Positions 1 to 51,388 of a DNA stretch of 64,000 bases are shown piece after piece; the stretch's first letter is position 1; each line of letters begins with the position of its first letter. The position numbers and the translations under genes were made by a program. The notes under the pieces are model-generated. The model made no database searches and was not told where the DNA came from. It saw only the letters and a list, made by a program, of their open reading frames with translations. Source of the DNA: Podarcis bocagei (taxonomy: Eukaryota); the NCBI GenBank assembly GCA_964188305.1, contig OZ076885.1; one strand, 5' to 3'.

Positions 1-291
1 GCTTTCTGCTTAGTTGTTGCAACTCCATGGTATTGCAACTACATTAATACAGCATTAGCTGGGAACATAGAATCAGGTTGCCTATTTACCTTAAATAATG
101 AAGCATCAAATAGAGACCTAGCTTAAGGGATTTCATTCATTCAGGAATGCTTCTAGAACTTGTTCCAACTACTTAATTCTTACACATCAGTGGGAAAGAA
201 ACAGAACAGTATGGTTATTTGTGTGCAGCCAGCTAGCCATTTATATGTTTAATTGGTTTTGATTTCTTTGCTTATATCTTTTCTCTGCAAG

Positions 292-12200: not shown

Positions 12201-15200
12201 CCTTTTGAGTGCATATGTTGTAGGTGGCTGCACAAAACATATTGCCACACTAGGCATAACGTTTTATCTTAATTACTAAAATAACATGTGGGCAGTGGAC
12301 CATTTCAGTGGTTTTTTGGTGACCATACATTCAGAGAGCTATAACAAGAATTTAATATAGGGCTTTGGTTTTCAACCAGTGTGCCATGGCACTCTGGGGT
12401 GACTTGAGGAACGTTCAGGAGAGACAGGGGGGCTGTCCTTTCATTAACTTGTAGCTCATATCTTCCTTCATTATCACTCTCTTTCCTTCTTAGGAACATT
12501 CAGGGGAGCTGGCAGCTTTAACTTGCAGCCCATTATCTTCCCAACATAAAACAACAGCAAAAAAGTGGGAAAACACTTTTGCATGACTGTTTATCTTCTT
12601 AAAATCTCCCCCCCCCCAACAAAAATTCTCCTCTCATCTTCACTAAGTAACAGTTCCTTAGTTTTACACAGAGGGCTTGAGAAATGCAAGAAAATAGCAA
12701 AGTAGCTTGATGGTGTGTGTGCCAAGATGTGTGTGCTCTATAAGAAGGGATTTAAAATAACCTTGAAAATGTCCTCTGTGTTTCCCTCTCCTACCTCCAA
12801 CATCCCTCCCTCCCTCTTCTTCTCTACCTCTCGCCACAGGCACTCCCCTCTTCCTTAACAGTCACCAAACTTTATCAGGACAGGGAGAATGTTGCAGAAA
12901 AGGACAGTGTCAACTTACATAACACTGTCAAACCGATAGTTACGTAAATTCAACTAACAAATATACCCACAACGTAACTAGCTGTGTTTAACTATATAAT
13001 TTCCTTATACATCATATAAACATACCGTAACTCTTTTCACATTATCTAATTGAGTAGAAGAAATTAAGGACCAACATTTAGAACAGGAAATACAAATAGA
13101 TCAGTTCTTATATATGTAATGTCCAAATAAAAGCTTTTGTGTTCCACGTATGTACAAATGAATCAGTTTTTTTAAACATAATTTCCAAATAAAAGCTTTT
13201 TGTGTTCCACGTATGTCTTAGCGAATACAAGTGTCAAACATAATAAGTTTAAGGAACAGGCTTGCAAAAGATGAACTTTTTTTGTAATGTTCCACCTCTG
13301 CCTTTGCAAAGTATGGTTGTTGTATGCAGCTGATGTTTCCAGGTATCAGACGAAGGATATGAAAGATCTTAACACGTGCCTTTGCAAAATATAGTTGTTG
13401 TATGCCGGTGTCAGACGAAAGAACTTAAAACGTGACAAGGATTCCCGGAATAATAACAAAATATTTCTCCTTCTGATGTTAATCTTGTTTCACCCTCCCT
13501 CCCCGCATTTGCACACTAATTTAGGAAAAGGCATGCTGGGGATGCCTTGCGGGATGAATTAGCTTGGCCCTGCAGCGCAGTGGCATTGCTTGGGTTCCCA
13601 TCGACACATGCGTTCCTACTTATATGTCCCCCAAAAATGGCACCGAAAAGGGGCATGGCGGAATGGGGTGGGGGCGGAACGGGGAAACCCCCACTTATGC
13701 ATGTCCTTTAATGGAACCCCAGTGTAAGCGACTTACACAGGGGAGCAGCAAAAAGAACATGGTTGGTCAAGGGAGCTGTGGACTCAGGTTAAAAACCACT
13801 GATACAGGGTATCACAAAAATGACTGACATCACAGCATATAAGAAACTACAAAGAGAGATGCTTGAACCAAGAGCTCTTTTAATATTGCCAAGAAAATTT
13901 AACAAGATTAGAGGGCTGAAAAATGCTTTGGAAAAATCCTACAGTACACTTTGGACCCACCAAAGAGAGATGAGAAGATATAAAAATAACCAAACTTAAC
14001 TGTCAACGGTACTAGAAACCTTAGCACCTAATATAGTCAGTGGGCATTTACTGGAAAATATGTGTGGAGGGAAATAATGAGGTAGGAACACTTACAAAGG
14101 AAGTCCCTTGGGTTTGAGTGCATACTTCTAATATGAAAACACTGAGAAAAGGATAAAGAAGGGATCACTGCTTCCCAACATGCAGCAAAACAGGCCAATG
14201 TGTGATCTTCACATGATAGATGTCCACAAGTGTACTATACTCTTTCCTATACTTATGCAAACCAATGTAAGAAAAATTCTGCCTATGAGGTACATCTAAA
14301 ATAAAGTGGTGTTGGAGGCTTTGAGGTAAGTATCAGTCCATACTGAAAGGTAGCCTTTTCAGCATTGCTTAGCTTAGTTTTTGAATTGAATAAAACAAAT
14401 ACGTGATCAAAAGCAGAAAACAGACCCTTGCAAAAGGACAAAGGCAATCTTCCTGGTTGACTGAAGAGAAGAAAGTCTGTTTATCAACGGGAAAGGTAAA
14501 ATAGGGTATGGAAATGTTTTGGTGAGCAACACCTGGACACACATGGGCAATGAATGTGCCTATGTGGTGAAAAAAAAAGACATAGGGTGCACTTTAATAC
14601 TCATTATGAGGCATATATAAAAATAAGAAAGTCAGATACTGATTTATTCTCTACATTTCTTTTATACAGAACCGAAATCTAGAAAATTCACTCTCTACAT
14701 TTGTGCAAGAAGAAAATGTAGATAAGAAGTATCAAGGTGAGGAATCTATCCTTACACACATTGCAGAAAATGGCTTTATTTGGGGGGGGGTAATACATGT
14801 CTGTGTTATGGTGAAAAGAAAGTTGTGGCAGACAGGAGCCACTACCATGCCACCATGATTAACTATTATTGCTTTATAAATATACAAACATGATGGGGAC
14901 AGAAGGCAAAAGTTTACTCCTTTTCCCTAATTTCCAAATTGTACCTGTGGTTAGGCCCATGTAAATCAAGTGATAAATTTCTCTGGATTACATTATAATC
15001 AAAGCCTAGTCCAGTTCTCATCTAAGGGAAACTAAGTGTCCACTGCCCTTTTTTACAGTGGTGTACATGAGCACATATATGGATATGCACCTGCTTTTTC
15101 ATGTACAGTGGTACCTCTGGTTATGTACTTAATTCGTTCCAGAGGTCCGTTCTTAACCTGAAATTGTTCTTAACCTGAGGTACCACTTTAGCTAACGGGG

Positions 15201-18200
15201 CCTCCTGCTACTGCCACTGCGCGATTTCTGTTCTCATCCTGAAGCAAAGTTCTTAACCCGAGGTACTATTTCTGGGTTAGCGGAGTCTGTAACCTGAAGC
15301 ATATGTAACCTGAAGTGTATGTAACCCGAGATACCACTGTACAGGCAACGGGCAACTGACGTGTGATTGCACATGCACACACAGTTCTGAACCCAAAAGT
15401 GACCCAAAAATGCCACTAAAATATCACTAACATAGTTGAATAGGGGTTGGGTGAAAAACTTTATGCAGGCCCCACTAACGTGCAGGGGATCCTGAATGTA
15501 ACCTTTGTGCAAAATGAGGATTGCCTGTACTGTATATATAAACAGGAATTTTAAAATAGTTTCTGTATACAGTGGTGCCTCGCAAGACGAAATTCATCTT
15601 GCGGTTTTTTCGTCTTGCAAAGCACGGCTATTAGCGGCTTAGCGGCTATTAATGGCTTAGCGGCTTTAAGAAAAAGGAAACAAACTCGCAAGAACTCGCA
15701 AGACGTTTCGTCTTGCAAAGCAAGCCCATAGGGAAATTTGTCTTGCGGAACGACTCAAAAAACGGAAAACTCTTTCCTCTTGCGCGTTTTTCGTCTTGCG
15801 AGGCATTCGTCTTGCGAGGTACCACTGTACTCCTAAGTACAAGGCAGAGGATGGCATATATTTCTGACAGGGGAGTGGCATCTGTAGTTTGTTAAGGGTA
15901 CTGGGATTTGTAGCTCTTTGAGGGGTCAACTACAGTTTCCAGAATTCTTTGGAGGATGTTATGTGCCTTAAATGTGTGTTGAATGTGCCTTAAAATGTAT
16001 AGTGTGGATGTGACCATGTTGCTGCTTTTCAGTTAATAATTTCAAGGTTACCAAAAAGTGTCTTTCAGCCATCAAATACCTGGATATACAGAAACTTTTT
16101 AAAGTTCCATCTGAAAGTTAATAATTAATTAATTAATAATACCCCACCCGTCTGACTAGTTTTCCCCAGCAAATCTCTGCGGCTCCCAACTGAATATTAA
16201 AAACACAAACATTAAAAACTTCCCTAAACAGGGCTGCCTTCAGATGTCTTCTAAAAGTTGTGTAGATTTTTATCTCCTTGACATCTGATGGGAGGGCATT
16301 CCATAGGAAGGGTGCCACTGCCTGGTTCCCTATAACTTCTCGCAGTGAAGGAACCGCCAGAAGGGCCTTGGACTTCACTGTCCGGGCTGAATGATGGGGG
16401 TGGAGACACTCCTTCAGGTATACTGGGCTGAGGCTGTTTAGGGCTTTAAATGTCAGTAACATCACTTTGAATTGTGCTCAGAAATGTACAGTACTGGGAG
16501 GGAGACAGATGCACCCCACTCAGAAGGGCATTTCACAAATACTGAACTGCCACCAGGGCTCTAATATGGGTCAACACCAAGTGGGCACTAGCCAGAGGTG
16601 TAACCGCCAACAGAGTTTATACTACTGGTTGTAGGGCCTAAGATGGTTGATAGTAGGAGAGGTGCTCTTTTAGGTACATGGGTCTCAATGTGCCATCATT
16701 CACTTATAACCAGTACAGCACTTTCAGGACCTATTTATCAATTTTGCAAGATAGGGGTATTTTAAAAATTCAAAAAAGAAAATGGGATTTGGCATCCACT
16801 TGATAAATAAGGCTGGCAATATTCGCTGTTGTGCTTTTGCACACTTTCTGGGGTTTTTCTTTTTTTAAGGTAAGCAGACCACCACCACCCCATGCCCAGA
16901 AAAGAAAAAAGATAGTGGAATGTACGGGAGGAGTGAGTATAGGGAGAGGCAAAAAACTCAGACAGCCCAGATGCATTCTACCAAGCTCTACCCATTGGTA
17001 TGGAATCACAATTAAAATTGTGACTGAAAAAACAGGGCTATTCAGCTCCACTTGGCAGTTGTGGAAGCAGGATGCCACAATTGGATTTTGCCCATATCTT
17101 TCTTTGCAGACACTCTAGGGGGCAATATTGAGCTATATCAGAGTATTTGTCACAGACATTTACCAGTATCTTGCAGTGTACTGAATTCCTAGCAGAATAT
17201 AGGCTTTCTGGTTGCAGAGGATATTTTGAAGACATTTTACATTCCTTCATCTTACCTCTGTCTTTCCACTGTGTAGAACTCACTTTGGGTAAGCAGAACA
17301 TCCCAATAATTGAACCTGAGATCAAGATCAAGGGTCCCCAGCCACTCCTGGTAGCTATGATTCCATCAATAGAACAGCGACGGAGCCTCACAAAGTCACC
17401 CATCAAACAGCACCCATTTTCCTTCCATTTACAGCCTGATGAAGAACTTCATGAGAAACAGAATGCAGGTACAGGACTGGGGTAGTTAAGCAGACAAGTT
17501 TACCTGTGAGGTTAAGGGACAGAATGAGCATTTAGGAGTGAATGATTCTAATAAGAAAATTCTGCCAGATGAAGAAGACAAATTTAGGTGTGAATCTGGA
17601 CAAGATGGGTACTTGTTCTCTTTAATTGGAATGTCAGACACCAAATCTAAACCATTGTATTAAGTGAAACAAGACATTGAGTAAAATTCACATCACTGCT
17701 GACTTTAGTCTAGCCAGAAATGCACTACTGTTATTTAGTTTTGATTTGGCATTTGTGTTTCCTTTTACTTCTTTACAGGCACTTGTGTTTCATCCGAATG
17801 TCCTCGTGGTCTTGGAGTCAAACGACACAGGTACTACCGGGTCAGAACTCCTCCTGGGCACCATGACAGCCTCCTGAAATGGCATTGATTTAATTGTCTA
17901 ACTTTAGGCCTTTTCATTTACAATTTACTTACATGATGATACATGTGCAGGAAAACATTACATGTACTTCCAGGAAGCAAGGTGGATTAGTCTTTTGCAT
18001 CAAAAACAACAAAGTGTCTTGCGGCACCTTAAAGGCAAATACATTTATTATGGCATAAGCTTTTGTGGAATACAGTATACTGCAAATAAGTATTTCATCT
18101 GTGTTTTTGGACCTCATTTACAGCCACCCTCATCATGTATACAACCCCCCTCCCACCCCAAGAAAACCATGTGTATGCATTGTTCCCATAAGGAATTATT

Positions 18201-19472
18201 TAGTGTTTAAGAGGCCACAAGACGCTTATGGTGTTAGGTTTACAGTTATGTGTGTAGTGTGATGTGAATGCTCTTTACATGCTGAGGCTGTGTAAAGGGC
18301 ATGTTCTGTACTCACTGACTGTTGCCTGGTGTGTGTGTATTATAATCAGGTTAAACTAGGTGAATTGAGGCTGGGTGGCTAATGTGTGGTGTGATGTAGT
18401 TTCTATTTCATGCAAGGTGAAACTTGGAAAGTAGCCTTGGCTAGTTGCTCATTTATCTTTGAGCTATATGATAATTCAACAAATAAAAGGCTACTCGGTT
18501 GAGACACACAAAAGTACCGGTAATCTTTGTCAGCACTCCAGCGATTGCTAATCCTGCTTGGTAAAACAACCACCACTGTATTGTATTCTCTCATCTTTTA
18601 GAACATGAATGAAAATCAGAAATCAAGGCCAAACCACATGCTTTATTATGCTTTATTGCATTTGTCTCAGGATTTTTGTTAAATGGCCGCTGGAAACTTG
18701 TTGGGATTAGGACCATGGTAGGGCCCATTTTCTACTGTGTTGCAGTCTAAATGAAATTTGCTCCTGGAAACTGCTTCTGTTGTTAGGGAGAAGCTCTTTC
18801 CCTCCCCTCCCTGTATACTGTGGTCCTGTTTCTATTCAGGGGTCCTTGCAACTGTTATTTAACAAACAAAGCCCCCCAGACATTGTTAAATACAATTGCT
18901 CAAGTTAAGAGTCTAACCCTGATAACTAACATTTTCCTGCTGTGAACTGCATGAAATGCTAATACCTTTAGGTTGTGGATAAGCCTTGGTCCCTGCTATG
19001 CCTTTGTGAAATGAATTTCTTTCACTCTCAATTTATTAATTAATTACAAGTGCTTGTATACCACTTTTTATCTACAATACAGTATTTGAAATTTAATTAT
19101 TTAAAAGAACTATTTTTCTCCCCCAACCCTTTTTTTAGGTCCATGTGGTGGAATCCTGAAGTGCCTTCTGTGACTTTAATGCTGCGTCGAAGTCTTTCTT
19201 TGAAATCTCATAGCATTATTGACAACAAAAACCTGTGGAATCTGAACCAAAGCAGGTCACAGATTATTCCCTACCGAGAATACAAATGGAAACCACTCAA
19301 AATTGACTACATGGTTCTGAAGTCTGAAAATGAACATCATGCCAAAGTCAGGGGAACTCCAAACATGATTGGACAAAAATATTCATTATTGAAGAACAGA
19401 GAGGGTAATCCAAAGGCAAAGTTTGTGCACAAGGAACATCTTGTGCCCTCCTATGAAGCCATAGACTTTTAA
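292..19472 (+). CDS. AGBL2: Cytosolic carboxypeptidase 2 (AGBL2/CCP2), 3' part; 5' exons lie upstream of the window
   Basis: Confident GT-AG exons 292-451, 1285-1411, 1926-2026, 2501-2631, 3342-3408, 5397-5516 join in phase: [27 protein letters not shown]...[12 protein letters not shown] / [37 protein letters not shown] / [25 protein letters not shown] / [22 protein letters not shown] / poly-Lys. This is the M14 CCP catalytic C-terminus (FHGHS zinc ligand, YTME catalytic Glu). Less certain C-terminal exons 14670-14736, 17277-17468, 17779-17830, 19139-19472 are phase-compatible. Lies upstream of MTCH2 in the same orientation, as in mammals. Confidence 0.88.
2701..2940 (+). mobile_element. Degraded CR1 LINE ORF2 fragment
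   Basis: Interrupted translation resembles 'KSPGPD.I..VLKELK.EIA..L ... PVFKKGSR.D...YRPVSL.SVP', matching the equivalent segment of the intact CR1 ORF2 at about 49400-49620. Confidence 0.7.
7135..7427 (+). mobile_element. Diverged Sauria-type SINE
   Basis: Shares blocks with the 28945 copy (gggcttgctgat, gggtgagctcc, gctggccacatgacccggaa, gagatgagcgccgcaacccc, ggggtccttt tail). Confidence 0.75.
15106..15339. mobile_element. Tc1/mariner (Tigger-like) MITE
   Basis: TA-flanked terminal inverted repeats CAGTGGTACCTC...GAGATACCACTG; internal repeated taacctga motifs. Confidence 0.85.
15570..15827. mobile_element. Tc1/mariner (Tigger-like) MITE
   Basis: TA-flanked TIRs CAGTGGTGCCTCGCAAGACGAA...TTCGTCTTGCGAGGTACCACTG; multiple internal cgtcttgc repeats. 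Confidence 0.85.
16133..16490 (-). mobile_element. L2 LINE 3' fragment
   Basis: Minus-strand translation [17 protein letters not shown]...[16 protein letters not shown]...[10 protein letters not shown] is typical of the L2 ORF2 C-terminus; followed by a TTA-rich tail. Confidence 0.75.
17965..18075. mobile_element. Penelope-like element terminal fragment
   Basis: aaacaacaaag...gcggcaccttaaaggc...atttattatggcataagcttttgtg resembles the arm of the 28150 element (gcaccttagagac...ataagctttc). Confidence 0.5.
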
Positions 19473-21779: not shown

Positions 21780-22960
21780 TGCCCTCTACGTACTACACAT
21801 CCGGCGCCTGCCAATGACTTACTTATGTAGCTAAAACTGGGCGCGGATAGTGTACTCTTCTCGCGACAGCTTCTTCCCGGCCTCTCATTCTCCAGTGGCT
21901 ACTCCGATTAAAAATCTACAATTTCCTACCTCTAGGTCAGAAGATTCTTAGCCCACCTACCGTGTGACGCAAAAGCCTATTTTTTTTTTCTTATTGGCTG
22001 TCAGAAACAGAGCTAAGAAGCACGTCGAGAAATGCCAAGAGAAATTCAATGGGACGGGGGGATGTAGAGTTGTGTACCACCGTAGTCCTCGCTGACACTT
22101 CAGTTCTATACAGTATTCTGATCCTTTTTACCACCGAGCTGCAAAGCTATAGAGCGGCGACCATAGAGAATCAGCTTTCGGGTTGGTTGGTTTTTACCGG
22201 AAGTTCAGGCTGCAGGTCACTGTCAATATTGCTCCCCCCCCCATAGGCTAGGCCTATCGCGCTCTAGAAGTGGCGGAAACAGGGACTAGCTGGAACCGGA
22301 AGTAGTTGGAGTGGGAGGGGAGGGAAAGGACGTGGAGGCAGCGGCTCGAGCCGTATCTTCCTCTACCGCAGGTCACGTGGAGGTGGCGCGGTAGCCTCTG
22401 CTTCCACCCCCCACCCCCCTCGGCGGAGCCCGGCGCGGCTGCAGCATGGCGGACACGGCCTCTCAGATGCTGCTGGGCTCCGGCCTCACGGTGCTCTCGC
22501 AGCCGCTCATGTACGTGAAGGTGCTCGTGCAGGTGAGGCCTTCAGTTCTGGCAGGTTTTCCTCGCTCGTGAGGGCGACGAAGGGGGCGGCACTGAGTGGG
22601 TGGGAGGAGGTCAAAGCAGCCCCAGGTTGCCTCCCACCCTCGCTCACTGGGGAAGAAGTTTCCTCCTCGCTCCCAAACGCGTTTCCATGGCAGCGCCCCC
22701 CCCCCCGCGCGTAGCCAGCAGCCCCTCAAAGTAGCAGAGTCGCCCTTCGGCTTGGGTCGTATCCGGGCCTTGCTTTGCTTCAGACTTCCTTTTCGCAGGG
22801 CGGTGGCTGCTCGCCTCCCTGCCCCGAGGCGTAGCAGCAGCGCCGCCGCCCCGGCGGAGGAAAAAGAAAGCCGCTCGTAGGGACGCGGGAAGCGCTACCT
22901 CACTTTCACATCATCCAGACAGCAGGCGCCGTCATTTGCGGTGCAACTTCGCTTTTGAGT
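21780..22960 (+). promoter_or_regulatory. MTCH2 promoter / CpG island
   Basis: CpG-rich region around exon 1; two CCGGAAGT ETS/GABP motifs (22197-22204, 22296-22303), reverse CCAAT near 21993, E-box GTCACGTGG (22372-22380), near-TCTCGCGAGA motif at 21859. Confidence 0.8.
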
Positions 22961-25900
22961 CTTTCTTTATTGCGCTGCCTAGAACCGCAGGTATTGAGGT
23001 GGGTCCGGCGAGGGGAGCACTTGGGAATCAGCAGCCGCAGCGTCTTCTCTTCCAGAGTTGAATGGTTACTTACGAGCCCCCCCTCGAGACTGGTCGAGGG
23101 GAAAGACTTCCCCAGGGTCGAATTTCAGTCCAGTTGCGGTGAACGGCTGGGCAAGGGTCCCTGGGTCCTTTGCAGAGAACCTCCCTGTTGTAGAAAGAAT
23201 GCTTCCTGCGGGGTTTTGCTGCTGTCAAGCACTCCGCCAGCTGCTTGTCACACTCGCATGCCATCCTGCCGCAGATATTTGTGGACTGGCATTCCGTCTC
23301 TGATCCGTTGCATGAGAGTTTGTACCGTTGCCACTTTACCCTGCGGTGACACTTTAAGGATACCCTGGCGTGGCGGTAACAGCAGTCATGAATGAAACAG
23401 CACTGATCCACTGCATCCACGGGGCTTCCAGAACCACCAGTTCCACAGTAGCAGCCATATAGATTGAGTCCTAGCAGTGGGATTTGCAACCGGTGCCGGT
23501 AACACCAGAGGGTCAAAATCAGATCCAAGACACTGCGTTTCTCTCGCTTGCTGCCTTTGCTGTGTCCGCATTCCTGAGAGAACAAAATTGCCAGTGCTAG
23601 CCACAGAACAACCCTCATTGCAGAAGCCACTGTTTAATTTTAGCCAGTTTCAGACTAGCGTACCTCACTCAAATGTTTTTGTGAGCCTGGCTGATTTCTG
23701 AATCTGGATCAGTTTTCTGTGCTGGTTTTATGTGTGCCTCGTATTCAAATTTGTCCTCTTCTCATTTTTATTGGTAGCGTTTCGGACACTCCCAGTAGTT
23801 CCAGCCTCAAGAACTTCTTTATTTACTATATTTGGCTGCATGTTGCTTTTGGCCAGCTGTGGCTTTGTACTCGTATCGTCATTGGCTGAAAAGCATAGCT
23901 GCCCCAGGTACAACAGCCCTGTCTGTTAAAATATTTAACAGCCTGCATATCCACCTTCTAATAAAAAATGCAGGAATGGGAAGCACATTAGCATTTCGGA
24001 GTTTGGATACACAAATTCCTATAATGTAAGTTTCAGAATTTAAGGGCAAAGGACAATTGTGAGACTTTCTGTTATTAGCCTCACAGTGGTTCTCATATGA
24101 TTCACTATACAGAGGATATGTGGAGCTATGTAGTGGGATATCTATCTCAAAAATAAATACCGCCTACCTCTGCCAAGAAAGCACATTGTCTTCTTTGGTA
24201 AATTGGACTTGTGAAACACAGTATCCAATTTGTCCGTAAAACTTTTTGCTAAATTGCAGACCTTGTGAGTTATAAACTATGGAAAACATGTTGTCTAGTA
24301 CAGTGTTTCCCAACCACTGTTCCGCAGCACACTAGTGTGCCGCGAGATGTTGCCTGGTGTGCCGCGAGATGTTGCCTGGAGGGAGGCGGGCGAGTCGGGC
24401 GGCGAGAGGCGGGGCGGCGGCGGCGAGGAGAGGCCGCCCAGCGCGGGGCTCTCGCCGTCTGCCTGCCTGGCTGCCTGCGAGCTCGGCGGGCAGCGCCTCC
24501 GTCCGCAGCGCCCGCCTCGCGGCTCTCATTCCCTGCCCCTGCCAAAGCTCACCCAGCCAAGCCGCGCTCTCCTTCCTGCCTCGCTTTGCTGCCTCCTCCC
24601 CCCCCACCCCCAAAGCTTGGAGGTTCCCCGGCAAGGGGGAGGAAAAAAAATTGAAACTTACACTTTCGTGCGTCCCTCCCGGCGTGACGCTACGCGCTGA
24701 CGTCACGGGGCTGTAATGGTGGTGTGCCTCGAGATTTTTTTCATCAAACAAGTGTGCCTTTGCCCAAAAAAGGTTAGGAAACACTGGTCTAGTATGATAT
24801 ATTGTGACAAGTCAAGTGGCTATTCACAGCATAAAAAGCAAAATAGCTCCATGTTCTCAACTAGTTGTTTAACATTTAATCACAGCAAACTTATCTTCAG
24901 AGTCACCTAGATCACATCAAGGACAAACATTTTAAAATAACTTTACCTGGTTGGAAAAAATGCAGGGGGGAATCACTTTGGAGCGAAGAAGTGGGGGAAT
25001 ATGGTGCAGCGTCTGTGGGGATATATGTTTGGTCTGTATCTCCAAATTTTATTTAAATTATTTATTTCCTGTTCTTTAGCCAAAAAGATTCCCAGAACAT
25101 CTTATGACAGTCACTAGTAAGACATATATATGTATAGCACTAAGAGATGGCACCTGTTATCCAGTGATCTTGCCAGACTTTCTGCTGAACTGCAGACCAC
25201 CCAGACATTTAATGTGAGCTACAAACTGTTACCATCTTCTGAATATAGTGGTTTTAGAACTTTAAACTTACAGTTAGTAGCACAGACATAGAATTCTAAG
25301 AACAAAAAATTGATCATATTTTCTCTTATGGTTCAGTTTTCAAATGTCCAGTGAGTGGAACAGCTGTAGTTGTTCACTGCTAGGGAATGTTGGGGTTATT
25401 CCTTGGGGTGCTGTTCACACTGTAGAGGTTGCTGTAGGCTGTCTCTTTATTTTGAAGGTGGGATATGAACCCCTCCCTCCAACTCTGGGAAGAAATATCT
25501 TTGGGCGACAGGTCTATCAGCTGCCTGGTCTCTTTGCTTATGGTGAGTGCATAATGTATAAGATTTGTGAATGAGCCAGAAAGACTTAAAGCAGGATTGG
25601 ATTGCTGTAATTGTTGCACTGCACTTGGTGGTGCCTATGCCTTTGAAGCAGAGCTTCTCATGTGTACAAGGATTAGCTAGAGATCCTGCAACTGTTGGAA
25701 CAGTGGCAGTTTATATAGGTAAAGTGGTGAGTCTCAACTCTCAAGAAGCTTCAGTGCTATAGCCATGATCATTGGCTTTTGAATTCATGCAGTGAGACAG
25801 AGTTAGAATAACAGGAAAGTACAATGTTTGGGCATCTGAGCCTCTCTCTTCCTGTAGCCTATTGCCCTTCAAGTATCCTTCATATGATTTAGCCTGTGCA

Positions 25901-28900
25901 TGCATGTGCATGTCCCAGCAATGCCACACTTCATGCTCCGACTTGTATATTATTGGCTCTGAGCTTGCTTGCTTTCTTGCACACTGTTACTCAAACTTAG
26001 GATCATTAACAAGTAACTTGTTACTGCAACCCAGAGATGGGGGAGCTGTGACCCTCTAGATGTTGTTCAACTTCCTAACCAGTTTGCAATATCTGGGAAA
26101 TCTGTGACTTTCCCTCCTTGTTGTAGAGGATGGCAGAGTTTGGGAAGGGCAAGCCGGGTTCTGGTGCATGCTGACATTATTTTAAGTGTAGTCCAATGTT
26201 CAGTTAAGCATGCTGAAATAAATAGGACATGAGCATGCTTTGCTGTGCAGGAGATTATGCCTGCAGCTGTGTATCGTGACCTTTGTACTGAAGTTTCTAA
26301 CTTGGCATCAGGCCCGGTCTTCTCTAGCATAGGATAGGCCGAGTTTTAAATAGTTTTGCATCCCTAACTTCTTTTTTTTAAACACATTTTTGAGTGCTGG
26401 AATCTCTAGGCAGGTGGGTGAATGGGGTGAGCAGTCAATGTTGAGTATTATCTTTTAATCTGTATTGACTTCTGTTTTCAGCTAAACACATTATGAAGAT
26501 TGATGGAAGGGCTGGACTCTTCAAAGGTTTGACTCCTCGACTCTGCTCAGGAGCTATCGGCACTATAGTGCACAGTAAGGTTTTACAGGTACTATATAAT
26601 TTTATTCTATAGCAACATTAGTATGCTAAACATTTCACAATCTGATAAAGTCAGCCATGCCCTGCTAAGCCCTGCCAATAAGGTGTTAGTTGCCTTTTTA
26701 AGGCAGTGAAAGTCGTTATTTGGAACACCTGTAGAACAGTGTGCAACTTCAGGTATTATTCCCGCCTTCCCTAGACTCAAGTTGCATTCTTTGGCTTGTC
26801 AGAGATTGGAAGGAATGCTTGCTATGGCAAATATGAGGAGCGTGTTTGTAGTTGTCTAGGATTAAGCCTTAGTAAACACAGTGGGCTGTTTCCACATGGA
26901 ATGTATCACTTGAATTAAGTTTTATCTGCTCCCCTCCTTCTCTTGTGTGCTCCCATTCATTAAATTGCATCCTCTTCAGCGTAAGCCCAAATTTCCAATT
27001 GTATTCAAATAATCAGGGTATGGTATGTACTCAGCATTCACACAGGGGTTGTAAACTAGCTTAAAGCTTTGGCAGACAAAATTTGTTCTTAGAGCACCAA
27101 AGCATAGCTTAGCATTTTATGGCCCAAGCCAACAACAGTCCCAAATAAAGGTATTTGCAAGTCAGACTTTTTGGTTGCTACCAATAATTATTGTGATTGA
27201 TGCTGAGAGTGAATGGCAAGATACTTGACAGTTTCATGGGGTGGTTTCCAGCAAAGTATTTTGCTAGTGCAGGGGCTTCTGGCTGTGCAGCAGAACTTCC
27301 CTTCCTTCTCCTCTCCCCATGCATCCTCTAAATGTATTCCGGGGGTTACCCCAATCCTCTGAAGCAGATTTGGGGAGGGTGCATGGGTGAGGAGAGTGAG
27401 ATGAAGTTCTGTTGCACTAACAGAACTACTATTTTGGATACGACACATGGTTTTGACCATACAATCAGGTCTCTAAGCATCAAAACTATTTATAGGATGC
27501 ACCAATTTAGTTTAGCCTTGTTTTCTGTGGACTGCCTGGATTGCTACTGTGGCCACTTGGTTGTGCCAACCTGTAAGTAGCAGTTTCAGTTTTTTAAGGC
27601 TGTTTCTCTGCTTTTAGTTACACAGAAGAACTAGATTGGCAGATGACTCAAATGCACATTGCTTTCAATAATTAATCTGTGAAGAATGCTATATAACTCA
27701 TAGATATATAAGTAGTGTTGTTACATCTGATACATCTTGGAGAAATCACTGAACATATTGTGGGATAATAGTTGCAGAGTAACATGCAGGTTTTTATAGG
27801 TATATGAAAATCCTTCAGAAGTACTGTATTTTTCCATCTATAAGATGCCCCCATGTATAAGAGGACACTTATTTTTTCAGCCCAAAATTAAGAAATAAAT
27901 ATTTTAAACACTGTGTGTATAAGACGACCCCCAATTTTAAACTTTAAAAATTTGGGGAAAAATATAGTCTTATACATGGAAAAATATAGTATGTATTACT
28001 TTTCCCCCAAAATTCAGCTGGCTTGCAATAAGAGTACGAGAAGTAATATGTACCTTCTTTTCATTGGGAATAATTCAAGTAACAATCTTGAGGACATTTT
28101 TGAGACAGACGGCATGGAGTATTGAAATATATTTTAAAAATTTAAAAATTGTGCAGTAGCACCTTAGAGACCAACTAAGTTTGTTCTTGGTATAAGCTTT
28201 CATGTGCATGCACACTTCTTGAGAAACACTGTATCTGAAGAAGTGTAAATGCACACAAGAGCTTATACCAAGAACAAACTTAGTTGGTCTCTAAGGTGCT
28301 GCTGGACATTTATTATTATTATTTTATATATTGCGACAGTGTCAGACCAACACGGCTACCTACCTGAATATAGAAGCATGGAATATTCTTATTCTTATTA
28401 ATTAAATTTATTAGACACCTTTTCTTGCAATCCAATCGTGGGAATGGGAAAGTAAATGCGAAGACAATTACGTATGCTTAAAATGCTGAGAATGAGGAGA
28501 TAAGCCATGGGCTCATTTTTCTCTGTTTTCCTACTTCTAGCACTGCCAGGAAGCTGATCAAGTTGAGGTAAGTAGGTTCTTAGCTTTTATTTGTTTGCAT
28601 GAGTTGCTTCTCCCTTTCCCACCCATGTGATTGCTCCTCTATTTCCCTTCCCTGAGCTCATGGGTATTGGGAGGTGGCTGCTGCCTGTATCAGATGGTAT
28701 GTAGAGTAATGCATTCTCTGGGAGTTCTGGGGTTCTCCAGAATATCTTCCATCCAGAATTAGACAGCACAACAAGATGCCTTCTACAGACAGCACTGGAA
28801 ATGCCGTCACCCCATGACTTCTGATGCTCACTTTTCTCTCCAGGACCCAGGGATCAGCCCCAAGGAATCCTCGTCCTCCTTGGAGCAAGTTGTTAAGGAG

Positions 28901-31900
28901 GTAAGAGATGGATTCATTTGTCATGGGCTAAGCTGGGATGTATAGGGACGCGGGTGGCGCTGTGGGTAAAACCTCAGTGCCTAGGGCTTGCCGATCGTAT
29001 GGTCGGCGGTTCGAATCCCTGCGGCAGGGTGAGCTCCCGTCGTTCGGTCCCAGCTCCTGCCCACCTAGCAGTTCGAAAGCACCCTAAGTGCAAGTAGATA
29101 AATAGGTACCGCTTTATAGCGGGAAGGTAAACGGTGTTTCCGTGTGCTGTGCTGGTGCTGGCTCGCCAGAGCAGCTTTGTCACGCTGGCCACGTGACCCG
29201 GAAGTGTCTCCGGACAGCGCTGGCCCCCGGCCTCTTAAGTGAGATGGGCGCACAACCCTAGAGTCTGTCAAGACTGGCCCGTACGGGCAGGGGTACCCTT
29301 ACCTTACCTTTAAGCTGGGATGTATTAGGATTTCACATGCACAGGTGCCAGGGTTGAATGGTGACAATCTGTTCCCTGACAGAACTGATCAGGCATTGTG
29401 TTTTGGATAAATTAACATGGGCAGCCTCCAGGAATAGGAGCCAAGCTTGGCTCCCCTTCAAAAGAGGCACTTCCACCTACCCACTGCTAAAAGATGCTGG
29501 GGGAGCAGGAGGGTGTGTGAGGTGAATGACTGGGTGGCAAAGACAAGTCAGGCAGTGGGGAACCATTTAGAGCAGCGGTTCTCAAGCTGTGGGTCCCCAG
29601 ATGTTGAACTACAACTCCCATCATCCCTGAGCTTTGGCCTTCCTAGCTAGGGGTGATGGGAGTTGTAGTTCAACAACATCTGGGGACCCACAGCTTGAGA
29701 AAGGCTGTTTTAGAACCTATGGGGCCCTTGGTTGGTGCCTGGCAATGGTGCAGAAGTGTCCCACATTGCAGCCTGCCAGTTTTGTTCCATATCAGTGAAC
29801 AGAGGCCAGGATAACTGACTTTAAGCATGCAATATTGGGTTGTAATTAACCCAGCATTAAGGAGGGTTCTGCTTGCCCAAAGGAGCAATTTATTCTCTCC
29901 TCCCACTGTGCACTGTCCTGGGGGTTCTCTCAATCCTCCAGAGCAGATTTTAGGAGGATGTGGCAAGAGGAGAGGGAGGGAAAGACCTGTTACGTGAGTG
30001 GGAATCCTTGCATTGGCTTCCATGGGGGGGAGGAGACTGGGGGAAAAGCACATTGTACAAGCAGAAGCCCTTGGGCAGGGCTTCTGCTGATGAGTTTGTT
30101 AGGTGAATCCCACCCAATATGACAAGATGTCTGCAAGCTGTTTAAAGGGGAGTGTACATCCAGGAACAGAAGTCCTAGAACTAGAGAGATGAGGCACCTA
30201 GAAAGAGCCCTTCCAGTGTGCTATAGTGGGCAATAGGATGCACTTGGAAAGTCTGTGCCTAGCGTGATAATAGAGCAAAGCACTGTCTCTAAATGAGTTG
30301 AAACCTGTGGCTCGGCTGAAACTAGCTTTGATTGGTAGAGGAATTATAAACTCAGTTTTAATCTCAAAGTGCAGCTTCTTAACACAAATGCTTCGAGTTG
30401 TAACTCACACTAAGTGACAGCCATTAGGTGCTTTAGTGGAACCTGGTCAGATGGGGAGCATTCTGTCACTTTAAATCTTGCCATTTCCTTGGCTGGCTTT
30501 CTGCTGATGTTTTTGCCATTCCTTTTGGTCATAGACTTCTCAAGAGATGATTGCACGTTCTGCTGCTACGCTAGTCACCCACCCTTTTCATGGTAAGTGG
30601 GGGCTGTAGCCCTTTGGTCACTGCCAGCACACATTTACCTCTCTGGCAACAAGAAAGAGGAAAGTCATTCACCAGCCTTTCCTTGTTACATTCAGGTCCC
30701 TTCATGGTCATTGTTTTTTGTGCTTCGGGTATCCATCTTGCACACTGCTGGCTTTGATCAATTATCTGATATGTAATTATTTCCTGATGACATTTATACT
30801 CCGTTTTTCCTAATCAGCTGAAGGTGCCTAACAAAATGAGTCAAAACACACTGGAAGCCAGTGCAGCTGTTTCAGTAAGGGGGTCACATGGTCCCTGTAC
30901 GCAGCCCCTGTTAACAGGCTGGCTGCACCATTCTGCCAATTGTAGCTTTCAAAAGCAGCCCAATGTAGAGAGCATTGCAGTAATCCAAATGTGATGTGTA
31001 TGAGGCAAGTGTTGTCGTGACCAAGAATGGGCATAGTTGGCACACTGGTGTCAGCTAGGCAAAGGCATTCTGGCCCCAGCTGTCACTTGGGCATCCAAGG
31101 TCATAGCTCCTTACCATGAGCCTGAATTTTCAAGGGGCATTCTATTCCATTTAACTGTGGTTGAACCCCTGTTCCCGAACCAGGGGCATATCTGTCCTGT
31201 CGTGAGTTAAGCTTCAATTAGGAGAGTGGCGAAGTAGTGTGTTCCTGTGTTGGCCTGAGTAGGGGAAGGAGAGTGGGGAGGATCCTTGCTGATGTCATTT
31301 CCCTTTTCCCTCCGTCCTTGTCCTTCAGTGATCACGTTGAGGTGTATGGTGCAGTTCATTGGCAGAGAGACCAAGTACAGGTATGTGCATATTTGTGACC
31401 AGGCGGCTTCCTTTGGACTTTAGCCCACAAGGCCAATGCCTTTTTTGTAGGAGAACTTAAAAAGAGGCCAGGGAGCAATTAGTGTGTGAGCACAGAGGTT
31501 TCCTGTCATCGTTGAAGTTGAAAATGGGGAGGGGGTCAGGGAGAGCCACTTGTTTCTTGATTTCTGAGAGTAAATTAATTTCTTTCTTAATTTTCAGTGG
31601 GGTGTTGAGCTCCTTTGTCACCATTTACCGGGAAGAGGGCATCTTGGGATTTTTTGCGTGAGTACTTGCTTGTGTGTGTGTGGGGGGGTGAACTTCCTTT
31701 TGTACCTGCCATGGTTGTTGGTTCATGGGGGACATGGTGAACAGGGAGGGACAGAGGGCGAGTCCAATTATGGCCAGAGCTCGTGGGAGGCAGAATGTTC
31801 AACTAGTTGAAACTTTGATCTAATTCAGCCCAGATTTTCTTAAGCAGATTGTGATCTTTCTTGGGAGAATGTGTAACATTGTGCTTTGCACTAAAGTTGA

Positions 31901-34900
31901 TCAGCCTCCCATCATGGAAATACAGCCAGATTTTCTGCCTCACACACTGGAGGGAAGCGTGCATATGTATGTAACATGTTATTTCCAGGCAGTATGTGGC
32001 CTTCTCACTTAACAGTTTTTTTCCTTTTCCAGGGGCCTTATTCCCCGCCTGCTTGGGGACATCCTGTCCTTGTGGCTCTGTAACATGCTGGCCTACCTCA
32101 TCAATACCTATGCACTGGAGAATGGGGTAAGTAGACTACAGGTAGTGTGATGTATGGGGTGTAGGCAATGGAGTGCTGAGCTCAGGTAGGCAGGTATGAA
32201 AGGTTTCCTCCCCTAGCCTTGGTCAGCTTAAAGGGTCCCTATTGTGGTCCTGTTGCATATCCTCCTGAGCAATACAGTGGAACCTCGGATTAGGTTACCC
32301 TCAGGTAATGTAAACTTCGGGTTGTGAAAATGGCAAACCTGGAAGTGTTTTGCCGCACGCACATGTGCAGAAGCGGTCTCTCCGGTTGCGAAAACTTTGG
32401 GATACGGCTGGACCTCCTGAACGGATCCCGTTCACAACCAGAGGTACCACTGTATATCCTTTTTGTCCCCAGCCTCTGAATGTGGTTGCCTGTTGCTACC
32501 TCCATTACATCTAGTACTTTCAGGCAGCTCCTTCAGATTTTGCTCCAGTGCAGGGATTATGATGGATTTGGGAATGATTACTCTTAATTGAGGAACAGGG
32601 GTCAGTTACTTTGTTTCTCTTCTTTCTAGGTCTCCACCATGACTGAGATGAAAAGCTATTCTCAGGCTGTCACTGGAGTGAGTGTATAGTTCATTTCTCT
32701 TTCCTGTGGGAAGAGGGGGCGGGTTGTGTCCTGAGGATGTGAGCGTAGGCATGAGCACTTCATCCTGAAGTTTGGGGGTGATGCTGGTGATGTCCTGTGC
32801 AAGAAGCCTTGCAAGCTGTACACCTCAGGATCTCTGTTCAATACCTGTGAGATCCGTCTGATCTCTGGTGCTGAGCTCCTAAGTAGGTGCTGTTGCTTGG
32901 CTCAAACTACTGTTCGGCTTAAGCTGAACAATTACCAGCCATTTCATTTTATCTGCTTCATGATTGCTGTGAACTCCTGTCCTGAAACAGAATTGCGACT
33001 GCAATAACGCTTCACTGCCCTGTGGAGCTCCTTCTCTCTAGCCTAAGGCATGCTCCCTGCAACTACAGCTCTAAGAAGGTTCTGCCATTAAGAGGCCATC
33101 AGCTGGGTGGGGCTTGTGAAGGAAAACTGAGGGACTCTTTTCATTGGTGTATTTTGCTGTATTGTATCTGCAGTTCTTTGCCAGTATGCTGACTTACCCC
33201 TTTGTACTCGTCTCAAACCTGATGGCCATTAATAGTTGTGGGTGAGTGCAGAGTCTGATTTCTCTAACTTGGCTTTTGATTGTGTGTTTTCAAATGTATA
33301 ATACAAGCAGTTCAGTCTCATTTAGTCTTGGTTTGTCAGGTCCCTTTCCTTCATGAAGCAATGAGAGTTTTAGCAATGTGCTGCATCTCGCATCTGTTCT
33401 CTTCATATTTTCAGCAGCTGCTTTTCAGTGTTTAGGTACCACAACCCACAGAGCTTGAAAATAAAGCATCTGACATGGAAAGTCTCCTAGAATAGCTCTT
33501 AAGGGTTTAATTTAAAAGTTCAGTGGTCAAAGAGCCATCTCCTTCACTGCGCCCTGCCTATGTTCAAAATAGTTGTGGCTGGAGATGCAGCTAAGGACTT
33601 CTAAAAATTTGAACCTGGCTTTCAATCTTGTGGTCATCTGCAAATCCAGTAAATATTTTTAAATTCATGTGGACACTACAGGTCTATTCAATAGATTTCC
33701 AATCTCAAGAGAAAATAAGGGATCTGTCCTGTTTCTCCCCGTGGTTGTCCAGCTTTTTTTATTCATTTTTATCTTACTACAGTACATGGTTTATGGGTGT
33801 TGATTTTATTAATGAGTCTGATCACACAGAGGTAGAAAATTGTGATTCTTTCATTGTTTGATGGGTTAGACCAAGCTTCCTCAACCTTGTCCCCCCCAGA
33901 TATTTTGAGACTACAATTCCCATCATTCCTGACCACTGGTCCCGCTAGCTAGGGATCATGGGAGTTGTAGGCCAAAAACATCTGGAGGGCCAAGGTTGAG
34001 GAAGCTTGGGTTAGACACTGGGATGTACCTTCTGGCCACAAGGAGACAGGATGTTGAGAACTGTGGAGTCTCTTGAGAAAATACTTAAATTATAGGTCTG
34101 GTTCATGCATGACATGAAACCATAGTTAATGTGAATGAGCATGTTATGGGCTTACTGCTTGGTTTGGAGAGAAGCAAACCACAACCCTTGTGTTTCAGAC
34201 GCTACAACAAGCCAGGATTTGTGGTTTGTTGCTCCCCATGCAGACAGAAGCTGAGGAGAAGTGAAGTAAGGACTTCTGAGCCCACTGCGCTTTCACAATA
34301 AACCATGGTTAAACTCGCATTAAACCATGGTTTTAAGCATTAACCATGGCTATGTGCAGGGACGCGGGTGGCGCTGTGGTCTAAACCACAGAGCCTAGGG
34401 CTTGCTGATCAGAAGGTTGGCAGTTCGAATCCCTGTGATGGGATGAGCTCCCATTGTTCGGTCCCAGCTCCTGCCCACCTAGCAGTTCAAAAGCATGTCA
34501 AGTGCAAGTAGATAAATAGGTACTGCTCCAGTGGGAAGGTAAAAGGTGTTTCTGTGTGCTGCTCTGGTTTGCCAGAAGCGGCTTAGTCACGCTGGCCACA
34601 TGACCCGGAAGTTGTACGCCGGCTGCAAGCCTGAACTGCTGGTGTACAAATGCATTTTTATCTAGAAGGAACAGACCTTTTACTTTGCTCATTGATTCAG
34701 ACCTGTCTCACTCTCTTTCTTTTTTTAATGTAAAAGCTCAGCCTGAATGTTCTTTGAAGTAATTGTTCTAGTCTAGAAGTTGCATCTGGGCTACTGTTTC
34801 CCAAGTGACTATGAAGCTAGAAATGCATGTTCTGCACATGGGATATTGTTGGTGAGCTGTTTTGGTAAATTACCCTGGTCTCTTGCTGTTTCTCAGGCTC

Positions 34901-35573
34901 GCTGGTGGCCTCCCTCCTTATGCCCCAGCCTACTCGTCCTGGTTACACTGCTGGAGCCAGCTACAGGGGGAGGTATGTCTGTTTTGTCTGCCCTTTCATT
35001 AGAGGACCATAGCATCTTGCCCTTGATGTGGGTGGGAGAGGAAATTGGCAATACAGAGTCCCCCTCTCCAATTCTTCCAGGGGTTTTGGCCGTTGGGTGT
35101 ACCAGCCTCCCAAGCAAGGATGCCAGACCAAGATCTCTCTGTGTGGCTTGGGGTGCCCTCACCTCTTCTGGGTGCATTCCAGCTGCCACACCAAGTGTTG
35201 ATTTTCCAGGGTGGGCAAGCTTCATCTCTTGGGGCTTAGTTTTATGGTTGGGAGAGCCTTGAAATAGGGAGCCGTCTCCAAGCTCTTTCTTTCTTCAGGA
35301 AAGAAGAGAGAAAGAGACTCTGCCCCCACTCCAATTAAAACAGATTGCCCCTGACAGAATTTGACCCTCAATGGGGGGGGGGAACCCCTCTGTATTTGTT
35401 GCTGGCAAGATGCTGGACCTCTGTCCCCAAAGTCTCAGTCTCTATTCACATTCCCTCTCATGCCTCCTTTTCCCTCGTGTTTTCAGGGTAACATGAGCAG
35501 AGGGAACAGCCTGTTTTTCCGGAAGGTGCCTGCAGGGAAGCGGTATGTGTGGGAAGAGAAGAGATTTCACTGA
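22446..35573 (+). CDS. MTCH2: Mitochondrial carrier homolog 2 (outer-membrane insertase), 301 aa, 13 coding exons
   Basis: Exons 22446-22532, 25458-25542, 26482-26588, 28541-28567, 28844-28900, 30535-30592, 31329-31380, 31598-31657, 32033-32126, 32630-32677, 33174-33241, 34897-34972, 35487-35573; all GT-AG, total 906 nt. Protein [47 protein letters not shown]...[15 protein letters not shown] matches vertebrate MTCH2. Confidence 0.97.
22966..22971 (-). terminator. Candidate polyA signal (AATAAA) of the nested PLA2 gene
   Basis: TTTATT on the + strand, about 100 nt downstream of the PLA2 stop codon. Confidence 0.55.
23070..23618 (-). CDS. Secreted phospholipase A2 (group I/II/V/X fold, group-X-like Cys pattern), single coding exon, 182 aa, nested antisense in MTCH2 intron 1
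   Basis: ATG at 23618 (the track start at 23630 is GTG). Hydrophobic signal peptide [14 protein letters not shown], propeptide ending REKR, Ca-loop [11 protein letters not shown], active site [11 protein letters not shown] (His48/Asp49/Tyr52), ACECDK (Asp99), 16 Cys in the mature chain. Confidence 0.93.
24301..24786. mobile_element. Non-autonomous hAT (Charlie-like) element, GC/CpG-rich
   Basis: TIRs CAGTGTTTCCCAACC / GGTTAGGAAACACTG with perfect 8-bp TSD GTCTAGTA (24293-24300, 24787-24794). Confidence 0.9.
27824..27989. mobile_element. Mariner-like MITE
   Basis: TA-flanked imperfect TIRs CTGTATTTTTCCATCTATAAGA / TCTTATACATGGAAAAATATAG; internal tataagac repeats. Confidence 0.7.
28149..28369. 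mobile_element. Penelope-like element remnant forming a long inverted repeat
   Basis: About 70-bp arms: cagtagcaccttagagaccaactaagtttgttcttggtataagct... and ...agcttataccaagaacaaacttagttggtctctaaggtgctgctg; followed by gaccaacacggctacc, which I recall as a squamate PLE terminus. Confidence 0.7.
28945..29310 (+). mobile_element. Full-length young Sauria-type SINE
   Basis: tRNA-like head with A box (tggcgctgtgg) and B box (ggttcgaatcc), (ACCTT)n tail, 15-bp TSD TAAGCTGGGATGTAT at 28929-28943 and 29311-29325. Confidence 0.92.
29573..29707. mobile_element. Palindromic hAT MITE
   Basis: Almost wholly self-complementary (ttctcaagctgtgggtccccagatgttg...caacatctggggacccacagcttgagaa); imperfect 8-bp TSD atttagag/ttttagaa. 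Confidence 0.8.
30850..31200 (-). mobile_element. Degraded L2 LINE fragment
   Basis: Minus-strand translation [29 protein letters not shown] is the hallmark L2 ORF2 motif. Confidence 0.75.
32275..32452. mobile_element. Tc1/mariner (Tigger-like) MITE
   Basis: TA-flanked TIRs CAGTGGAACCTC / GAGGTACCACTG, same TIR family as the 15106 and 15570 elements. Confidence 0.8.
33872..34008. mobile_element. Palindromic hAT MITE
   Basis: TIRs CAAGCTTCCTCAACCTTG / CAAGGTTGAGGAAGCTTG; perfect 8-bp TSD GGTTAGAC. Confidence 0.9.
34359..34625 (+). mobile_element. Sauria-type SINE, 3'-truncated
   Basis: Begins gggacgcgggtggcgctgtgg and is colinear with the 28945 copy up to tgacccggaag. Confidence 0.85.
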
Positions 35574-50700: not shown

Positions 50701-51388
50701 TCCAAACTACAAGAAAGAAGATTCCACCTAAACATTAGGAAGAACTTCCTGACAGTAAGAGCTGTTCGACAGTGGAATTTGCTGCCAAGGAGTGTGGTGG
50801 AGTCTCCTACTTTGGAGGTCTTTAAGCAGAGGCTTGACAACCATATGTCAGGAGTGCTCTGATGGTGTTTCCTGCTTGGCAGGGGGTTGGACTCGATGGC
50901 CCTTGTGGTCTCTTCCAACTCTATGATTCTATGATTCTATGATTCTATGTGTTCCTGGTTTCTTTCAAATGTCGCCTGTCAGTTTTGTGGCCAGCCTTGC
51001 TGTTAACCTTGTCAGTGGTCAGTTGATCCATGAAGCCAACAGTGAGTCATGACACTGCCAGCCCAACCTTATCTGCCATTTTCTGGAAAGCCCTTGTGCC
51101 CAGAGTACAGTTCCTTGATCCCCTGGCATTTCCAGCTCTAAAGGATAAGAAATAAACCACTACTCCCTTCCCTCAGATTCTTGGATTGAAGAGGTATCTA
51201 TCACAGACTGGGCTCCTGGTGGTGTTCACATTAAGCTTTGAGTTGGATTCATTGCCCAAGCAGAGGTTCTGCATCTGCCTGGCAAAGAGCAGAGGAGGAT
51301 GCCATCTCACCTTTAGAGATTCGGGGAAGCAGCTCCTCAGCTCTTTCTTCAGCACTCGAAGATCATCCTTGTTGACTAACACCAGCAT
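38770..51388 (-). CDS. Glycine N-acyltransferase-like protein (GLYATL3-like), 284 aa, 5 coding exons
   Basis: Minus-strand exons 51388-51311, 42218-42111, 41093-40967, 40610-40481, 39181-38770; GT-AG, total 855 nt. Protein [58 protein letters not shown]...AVFYKD...[14 protein letters not shown]...[15 protein letters not shown]...FPSSCLLD...[23 protein letters not shown]...PVY carries GLYAT-family/GNAT motifs. Exact orthology uncertain. Confidence 0.92.
39625..39760. mobile_element. Palindromic hAT MITE (same family as 33872)
   Basis: TIRs CAGGCTTCCTCAAACTTGG / CCAAGTTTGAGGAAGCCTG; TSD atttagta/atttagtg (7 of 8 match). Confidence 0.88.
42294..46720 (+). repeat. Tandem array of 152-bp monomers, about 29.1 copies
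   Basis: ttgtagggcagc recurs at 42301, 42453 ... 44581 (15x152) ... 46709 (29x152). Units are near-identical; I saw variants only in units 3, 5, 7, 12 and 21. Confidence 0.98.
46863..47936 (+). CDS. CR1 ORF1p (Zn finger, coiled coil, SGNH/GDSL esterase), 357 aa
   Basis: CDSC...CSNC zinc finger, heptad-like [22 protein letters not shown], and SGNH blocks [17 protein letters not shown] and DGLH. First ATG is at 46863. Confidence 0.92.
   Translation: MMEDLCSHPQQHDLKMEGEGTAAVACDSCAMFAILPKVAGSFTCSNCMLIALLKDKVQQLEERVATLQRIRELELFLEATEHTVPTKEETGDSPEKEASSSTQEPDIWRNVTQRSRRPRVHSDCLEIHNRFEVLSPSMEDEEQTPFEDLSLITVDQVYEDEQQSQSSGNVQATLERTAHGRTPTKPKRRRVVVIGDSLLRGTEAVICGPDKMSREVCCLPGAKIQDVTERLQGIIKPTDKYPFLLVHVGTNDTASNSLQKIKRDYEALGRKLKQLNAQIVISSVLPVERRGPGREGKIVEVNSWLRKWCKQERFGFLDHGLQFLEDGLLASDGLHLTTVGRNVFAKNLRNLIRRALN
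47942..50862 (+). pseudogene. CR1 ORF2 (APE endonuclease + reverse transcriptase) split by one frameshift near 49031-49040
   Basis: EN motifs LYTNAQS, ITETW, GGGV, MGDFN, LDLVL, SDH in 47942-49069; RT motifs [37 protein letters not shown] in 49027-50862. Adding one base in aaaaggggg restores [13 protein letters not shown]. Confidence 0.9.

Follow-up and report, generated by a model that had tools for sequence, protein, structure and literature searches.

We analysed a window of 64,000 nt from Podarcis bocagei (assembly GCA_964188305.1, contig OZ076885.1), to which all positions below refer. Its plus strand carries MTCH2, with 12 coding exons mapped at 22446-35570 by tblastn with MTCH2 proteins; a 27-base exon candidate at 28541-28567 would bring the total to 13. 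Coding exon 1 (22446-22532), which lies within a CpG island, and exon 2 (25458-25542) were both placed by tblastn and RNA reads. Reads joining these two exons across 2925 bases numbered 112, 98, 588 and 597 in four RNA runs (related species); intron 1 therefore spans 22533-25457, with GT..AG ends, and the secreted PLA2 (sPLA2) gene considered here lies wholly inside it in antisense orientation. The nesting asserted by the first-pass annotation of this DNA thus holds, on tblastn exons and on splice reads in all four runs. A minor alternative donor of exon 1 (junction 22510-25458) takes 2-12 reads per run. Upstream of MTCH2 and on the same strand, tblastn placed exons of AGBL2 (cytosolic carboxypeptidase 2) at 263-19184.

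Other elements are also found in the window. A hAT-type MITE (24301-24786, no strand assigned) lies within MTCH2 intron 1, some 680 bases 5′ to the PLA2 start, and is not part of the gene. It has terminal inverted repeats and a target-site duplication of 8 bp; its interior is rich in GC and CpG, and it draws multi-copy RNA reads. A near-complete CR1-type LINE occupies 42294-50949, with an ORF1 containing an SGNH/GDSL domain (46863-47936), an ORF2 in two frames (endonuclease 48020-49069, reverse transcriptase 49027-50862) and an 8-bp tandem tail (50920-50949); in front of it lie 29 copies of a unit of 152 bp, matching at 99%. A weak tRNA-like match of 32.9 bits on the minus strand (57531-57590) is probably a tRNA-derived SINE.

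The PLA2 coding sequence is a single exon of 182 codons on the minus strand (23618-23070) with zero internal stops, identified by open-frame reading, by own-genome searches and by a match of its protein to Pfam PF00068 at 96.5 bits (curated cut-off 32.1). All its parts are on that strand. A putative signal peptide of about residues 1-20 (23559-23618), contiguous with the rest of the gene, was called by visual reading of the hydrophobic N-terminus, which is similar in relatives. There follow a short propeptide (23535-23558) whose end, R-E-K-R, is a predicted furin-type site according to the family alignment; a mature PLA2 domain (residues 29-156, 23151-23534) with 16 of the protein's 17 cysteines and a net charge of +8, delimited by alignment and by a model that matches sPLA2 folds; and, past the last cysteine in the alignment, a C-terminal tail of 26 residues (23073-23150) with an N-glycosylation sequon at N162. 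In the residue numbering used for sPLA2 enzymes, catalysis depends on the His48/Asp99 dyad, Asp49, Tyr52 and the Ca loop; the alignment has the Ca loop, H48, D49, Y52, Y73 and D99 all in place. The uninterrupted frame, Ca-binding loop, four catalytic residues and 16 cysteines described in the first pass were all confirmed in this way. The AlphaFold model is mediocre (pLDDT 61), with three helices and a hairpin visible, and all 47 matches listed by Foldseek were sPLA2 structures at probability 1.00; the best solved structures by sequence and by fold were pancreatic enzymes, with 1y6o on top. As judged by profile, active-site residues and predicted fold, the gene product is a conventional secreted PLA2.

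The first-pass annotation pointed to a TATA-like CATAAAA (23726-23732, minus strand) as promoter element and to an AATAAA (22966-22971, minus strand) about 100 bases past the stop as polyadenylation signal. Both motifs are where it put them, but dinucleotide shuffling of the 300 flanking bases, repeated 2000 times, gave CATAAAA by chance in 169 trials, a TATA-like pattern in 392 and AATAAA in 96, so that as signals they are weak and suggestive at best. Proximity to a housekeeping CpG island had also been given a role. The island faces the 3′ end of the PLA2 gene and the 5′ flank is CpG-poor (o/e 0.36-0.42); it therefore cannot be the PLA2 promoter, and we rejected it as a driver on orientation and on the RNA data, which give no co-expression with MTCH2. 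The RNA comprised four runs of a related species, from two studies, tissues not given, with 6-12% of each run read. Minus-strand transcripts were sought in the two stranded bulk runs, where no PLA2-direction read pairs fell over the ORF in the 6-12% read; sparse intronic reads there ran in the MTCH2 direction. Depth over the ORF was below 1 in the two single-cell runs, and MTCH2 exon 1 depth was ~100 to ~1280. In these four runs, then, PLA2 is not co-expressed with MTCH2; silence everywhere does not follow.

A PF00068 profile search of the same genome yielded 33 matches, and only the nested locus spans the domain in one frame. The other PLA2 loci, whose group labels we presume from cysteine pattern and similarity, are two of group IB (C16), four of group II plus an otoconin-22-like gene (C7), an OC90-like gene (C8) and two group-X-like genes (C14 and C6). 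The nine single-domain paralogues have the mature domain on three exons, cut at the same two places, in agreement with the 4-exon structure given for Pla2g2 genes in the accessible part of 10.1101/583344. The nested gene is without all three ancestral intron positions in this genome, the signal-peptide one included. Its mature domain is 28-38% identical to these paralogues, the closest standing at 38%. Genome search, identity and trees agree that it is a separate locus from the PLA2G2 cluster and PLA2G1B, as first claimed, and from canonical PLA2G10. Two paralogues deserve mention in their own right: the C6 gene (L034, G000:C6:75228500-75236000) is a second group-X-like gene, cationic and intron-bearing, apart from the canonical C14 one, and the two group IB-like genes of this non-venomous lizard (L036 and L037, C16, ~17.67 and ~20.23 Mb) are ~2.6 Mb apart.

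Of the 69 candidates that a protein search with the nested PLA2 brought up, 34 were family proteins, found in lizards, snakes, turtles, frogs, a newt, caecilians and sharks, together with four Logan proteins; cluster members extend the family to rays and to further snakes and turtles. When 1.84 billion representatives were searched with a profile, 13 matched at E up to 1e-30, seven of them new. Five of the seven are family members, from Xenopus laevis, coelacanth, paddlefish, a ranid (a second paralogue) and a sawshark (a divergent protein); the remaining two are multi-domain models of other groups. A further search found a sturgeon member. The gene had been framed as a matter of squamate evolution; that frame is too narrow for a family whose relatives reach sharks, rays, sturgeon and paddlefish, coelacanth, amphibians and turtles. 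None of the matches returned was a named member from a mammal, bird, crocodilian, teleost, gar or bichir. Birds and teleosts dominated our MTCH2 search, yet gave no PLA2 family member. Detection in these searches depends on shared words, members more than 50% identical are concealed behind their representative, and two proteins (P0009, P0022) have no assignable host, so that the members apparently missing from mammals, birds, crocodilians and teleosts are no proof of loss.

A metagenome scan for orthologue DNA brought up 26 loci, at most 68% identical over short stretches and at most 36% over the domain, with no orthologue among them, and the ESM Atlas contained generic PLA2 clusters only. Three turtle RefSeq models of the family are flagged LOW QUALITY PROTEIN. 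Ranid frogs have a second, diverged family copy (P0246/P0389). The sawshark protein (P0250) is strongly diverged, and its only match in the Podarcis genome is the nested PLA2. In the accessible text of PMC6707386 a toad parotoid peptide, sequenced de novo, is assigned to Xenopus XP_012817552; we rejected it as support: at E ~3 it is identical at 7/9 residues and differs from Bufo P0023.

Conservation was scored over 79 family sequences, a count in which near-duplicates and alternative gene models figure. H48, D49, Y52, G30 and G32 are kept in all 79, D99 in 78, the C-terminal cysteine in 77 and C11 in 76; the propeptide arginines are present at position -4 in 71/79 and at position -1 in 72/79. 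An RxKR-type site occurs in 60 of 71 family sequences and the 16 core cysteines in 63 of 71. The tail column aligned with the sequon has Asn in 60/79, and the full sequon is found in 48/71. Net charge (n=71) has a median of +8 and a range of -5 to +13. Identity is 97% to Podarcis raffonei and 71-85% to other named squamates, and mature-domain identity is 52-55% to five shark and ray relatives; this last figure bears out, at the protein level, the purifying selection that the first reading had argued from its intact residues.

Synteny was approached by a proxy, comparing RefSeq accession numbers and contig sizes for the PLA2 and MTCH2 proteins, on the assumption that the order of RefSeq numbers broadly reflects that of the genes. 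Both genes were available for 13 species; in 13 of 13 the contig sizes were identical and the accession gap was at most 72, being at most 2 in five of them. The gap is 1 in Mauremys mutica, Dermochelys and Rhincodon, 2 in Crotalus tigris (on a 1.7-Mb scaffold) and M. reevesii, 3 in Caretta, 6 in Malaclemys, 11 in Podarcis raffonei, 12 in Gopherus evgoodei, 15 in Emydura (on a 2.4-Mb scaffold), 22 in Thamnophis elegans, 34 in Pelodiscus and 72 in G. flavomarginatus. No amphibian, coelacanth or sturgeon pair is among the 13 species; on the MTCH2 side 10 of 120 matches were looked up, and the snake and lizard cluster members were partly listed (15/47). Terrapene was left out, its sole MTCH2 entry being an 89-aa fragment on small scaffolds unlike those of the PLA2, as were Rhineura, Tiliqua and Anolis sagrei, which have a same-size contig with no PLA2 accession shown. 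The whale shark (Rhincodon) pair, XP_048462903/904, indicates that PLA2-MTCH2 linkage is older than the split of cartilaginous and bony vertebrates. Adjacency of this kind means neighbourhood; for species other than P. bocagei we infer both nesting and lack of introns.

Trees with PLA2G1B, PLA2G2, PLA2G10 and OC90 domains, as the first-pass annotation had proposed, gave the family its own clade in three trees, with the backbone unsettled. The family forms one side of a branch with 100/100 support in a tree of 36 rows that includes the nine own paralogues, where the terminal branch of the nested PLA2 is short; it is a clade at 100/99 in 26 rows, and at 98/98 in 63 hand-chosen rows from an earlier set and 145 extracted domains, for which the bootstrap had not fully settled. 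A quick tree joined it to group X (SH-aLRT 88). A free 26-row tree placed it beside OC90 at 63/0, which is no support, and sister tests on the 26 rows rejected neither group X nor group IB (p-AU 0.556 and 0.478). As the careful trees leave the backbone open, no parent gene or sister group can be named. Within the Podarcis genome all 16 cysteine columns are common to the nested PLA2 and the two group-X-like loci only. The family resembles group X and probably works like it, but cannot be filed there.

What we observe is an open frame nested in MTCH2 in P. bocagei, with its cysteines and active-site residues in place, in a separate clade whose members range from sharks to snakes. The intronless antisense sPLA2 of MTCH2 intron 1 belongs to a conserved lineage of its own; we think it likely that this arose as a retrocopy of an early group I/II/X-type gene and was at MTCH2 before the shark/bony vertebrate split. 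Of the initial proposal of a functional retrogene or an unrecognised sPLA2 lineage, the conserved separate lineage stands, and the retrogene stays inference: the missing of all three ancestral introns fits retroposition, and the AATAAA is followed by no poly(A) run, although none is expected at such age. We lean slightly towards a broader statement, by which this would be a fifth, unnamed lineage of conventional vertebrate sPLA2, equal in rank to groups I, II and X. A single retroposition would have fixed it in antisense in MTCH2 intron 1 before that split. It would have persisted there, encoding an active enzyme switched by furin, in cartilaginous fish, sturgeons, coelacanth, amphibians, turtles and squamates, with independent losses in teleosts, in mammals and perhaps in birds.

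The most likely course of events would begin with a spliced mRNA of an early I/II/X-type gene, reverse-transcribed and inserted antisense into MTCH2 intron 1, where the copy would have gained a promoter and been retained. Proenzyme secretion and hydrolysis by the Ca/His48/Asp99 scheme are established sPLA2 biochemistry. Transcription would proceed from the intronic promoter of the PLA2 itself towards that of MTCH2, in few tissues or stages; our guess at these, in descending order, is mucosal or skin secretion, the male germ line and gut. The protein would leave the cell as a glycosylated proenzyme and be activated by a furin-type cut after RxKR; its cationic surface would bind anionic membranes, and the sn-2 ester of phospholipids is predicted to be cut by the Ca/His48/Asp99 mechanism in a group X-like manner.

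An unlikely alternative is that an ancient lineage reached MTCH2 as an intron-bearing DNA duplicate whose introns were lost later or in some lineages, with intron-1 nesting perhaps specific to certain lineages. Gene structure is known from P. bocagei alone, the remaining synteny consisting of accession numbers and contig sizes, and the patched ends of some UniRef models (P0029-P0031, P0035) could reflect splicing. Three separate intron losses are nonetheless less economical than one retroposition, and full-length members each occupy one open frame on Logan contigs as long as 7028 bases, which would suggest genomic copies free of introns if those contigs are DNA.

Rather improbable is conservation for a non-catalytic role, as a ligand or an otoconin-like matrix protein, in which the active site would be incidental. 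Besides the unsupported position next to OC90 in the free tree, such a role could draw on T36, L37, W38, Y40, R41, R85, K95, W96 and R118, non-catalytic positions that are invariant or nearly so. The unbroken retention of H48, D49 and Y52 speaks for catalysis instead, since OC90-type domains are without the His-Asp motif.

That the gene is the canonical PLA2G10 orthologue, the outcome against which the first-pass annotation had set its own proposal, or a recent retrocopy of it, we regard as highly improbable, and the C14 match and the identities refute both. Its cysteine columns, its dibasic propeptide and its place in the quick tree recommend group X. Against this, a named snake group 10 protein matches the C14 locus at 67% and 191 bits, and the nested PLA2 at 44% over 106 residues and 73 bits, ninth of ten; C14 pairs with that protein in the tree at 96/95; and identity to both group X loci is 38%, as opposed to the higher values for sharks and rays. 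NTAN1, a neighbour of human PLA2G10, is likewise on C14, 5.9 Mb away, which is a weak point. The refutation does not extend to an ancient descent from group X.

Least probable of all is a silent or decaying pseudogene with an intact frame in P. bocagei: it would accord with zero transcripts in four RNA runs, but frame and key residues are intact, identities to P. raffonei and other named squamates are high and the terminal branch is short.

Our retroposed-lineage reading concerns genes that have already been predicted in RefSeq under generic names; what appears to be new is that they form one lineage at one locus. Neither a PLA2 within MTCH2 nor a group of vertebrate sPLA2s without introns is described in the accessible literature, including the available parts of PMC4314415, PMC5721910 and PMC6707386, and MTCH2 had 0 occurrences in the accessible text of 10.1101/583344, whose supplementary gene tables could still mention the gene. 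In RefSeq the copies of snakes, lizards and turtles go by "crotoxin basic subunit-like" and one from a frog by "taipoxin-like". These are best-hit labels, not kinship, and can lead to the copies being taken for toxins when venom or skin transcriptomes are counted. The classification of sPLA2 was built on mammals and snake venom. If our reading is true, it gains a branch as old as jawed vertebrates and apparently absent from mammals, the picture of the ancestral vertebrate set behind venom PLA2 recruitment changes, and the gene is a nested retrogene of unusual age, with transcription running head-on into the promoter of a housekeeping gene.

Among known systems, the group II cluster (PLA2G2) is the source of viper venom PLA2. 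It and the otoconin-22-like gene share with the nested PLA2 the C50-C-terminal cysteine pair, and several members are cationic; unlike it, they are without C11 and C77, have 4-exon genes and lie on another chromosome, group II genes being described as an OTUD3-linked cluster in the accessible part of 10.1101/583344. ACTBL2, in the available portion of PMC7870945, is an old vertebrate retrogene that arose from a multi-exon family and has long been kept with one coding exon; the nested PLA2 differs from such old retrogenes in its family and in having no nameable parent. Group IB (PLA2G1B) is alike in the C11-C77 pair and the propeptide, and 1y6o is a pancreatic variant engineered with the group X disulfide; group IB differs in being without C50 and the C-terminal cysteine (14 cysteines), in a loop of 16 residues vs 13, in its introns and in an identity of 35-38%. 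Group X (PLA2G10) has eight disulfides, including the group I and group II pairs, and a propeptide with a dibasic end. The nested PLA2 is unlike it in being single-exon at another locus, in its 38% identity, separate clade and extra tail with a sequon, and in spacing: C11 to the YGC motif is 15 residues in the nested family vs 12, and C61 to C77 is 13 vs 11. Net charge is +8 in the nested PLA2, -4 in the C14 group X gene and +9 in the group-X-like gene on C6. The likeness to group X lies in the 16-cysteine layout, with both the C11-C77 and the C50-C-terminal pairs in the cysteine columns, the dibasic propeptide, a similar N-terminal helix and the absence of a full pancreatic loop.
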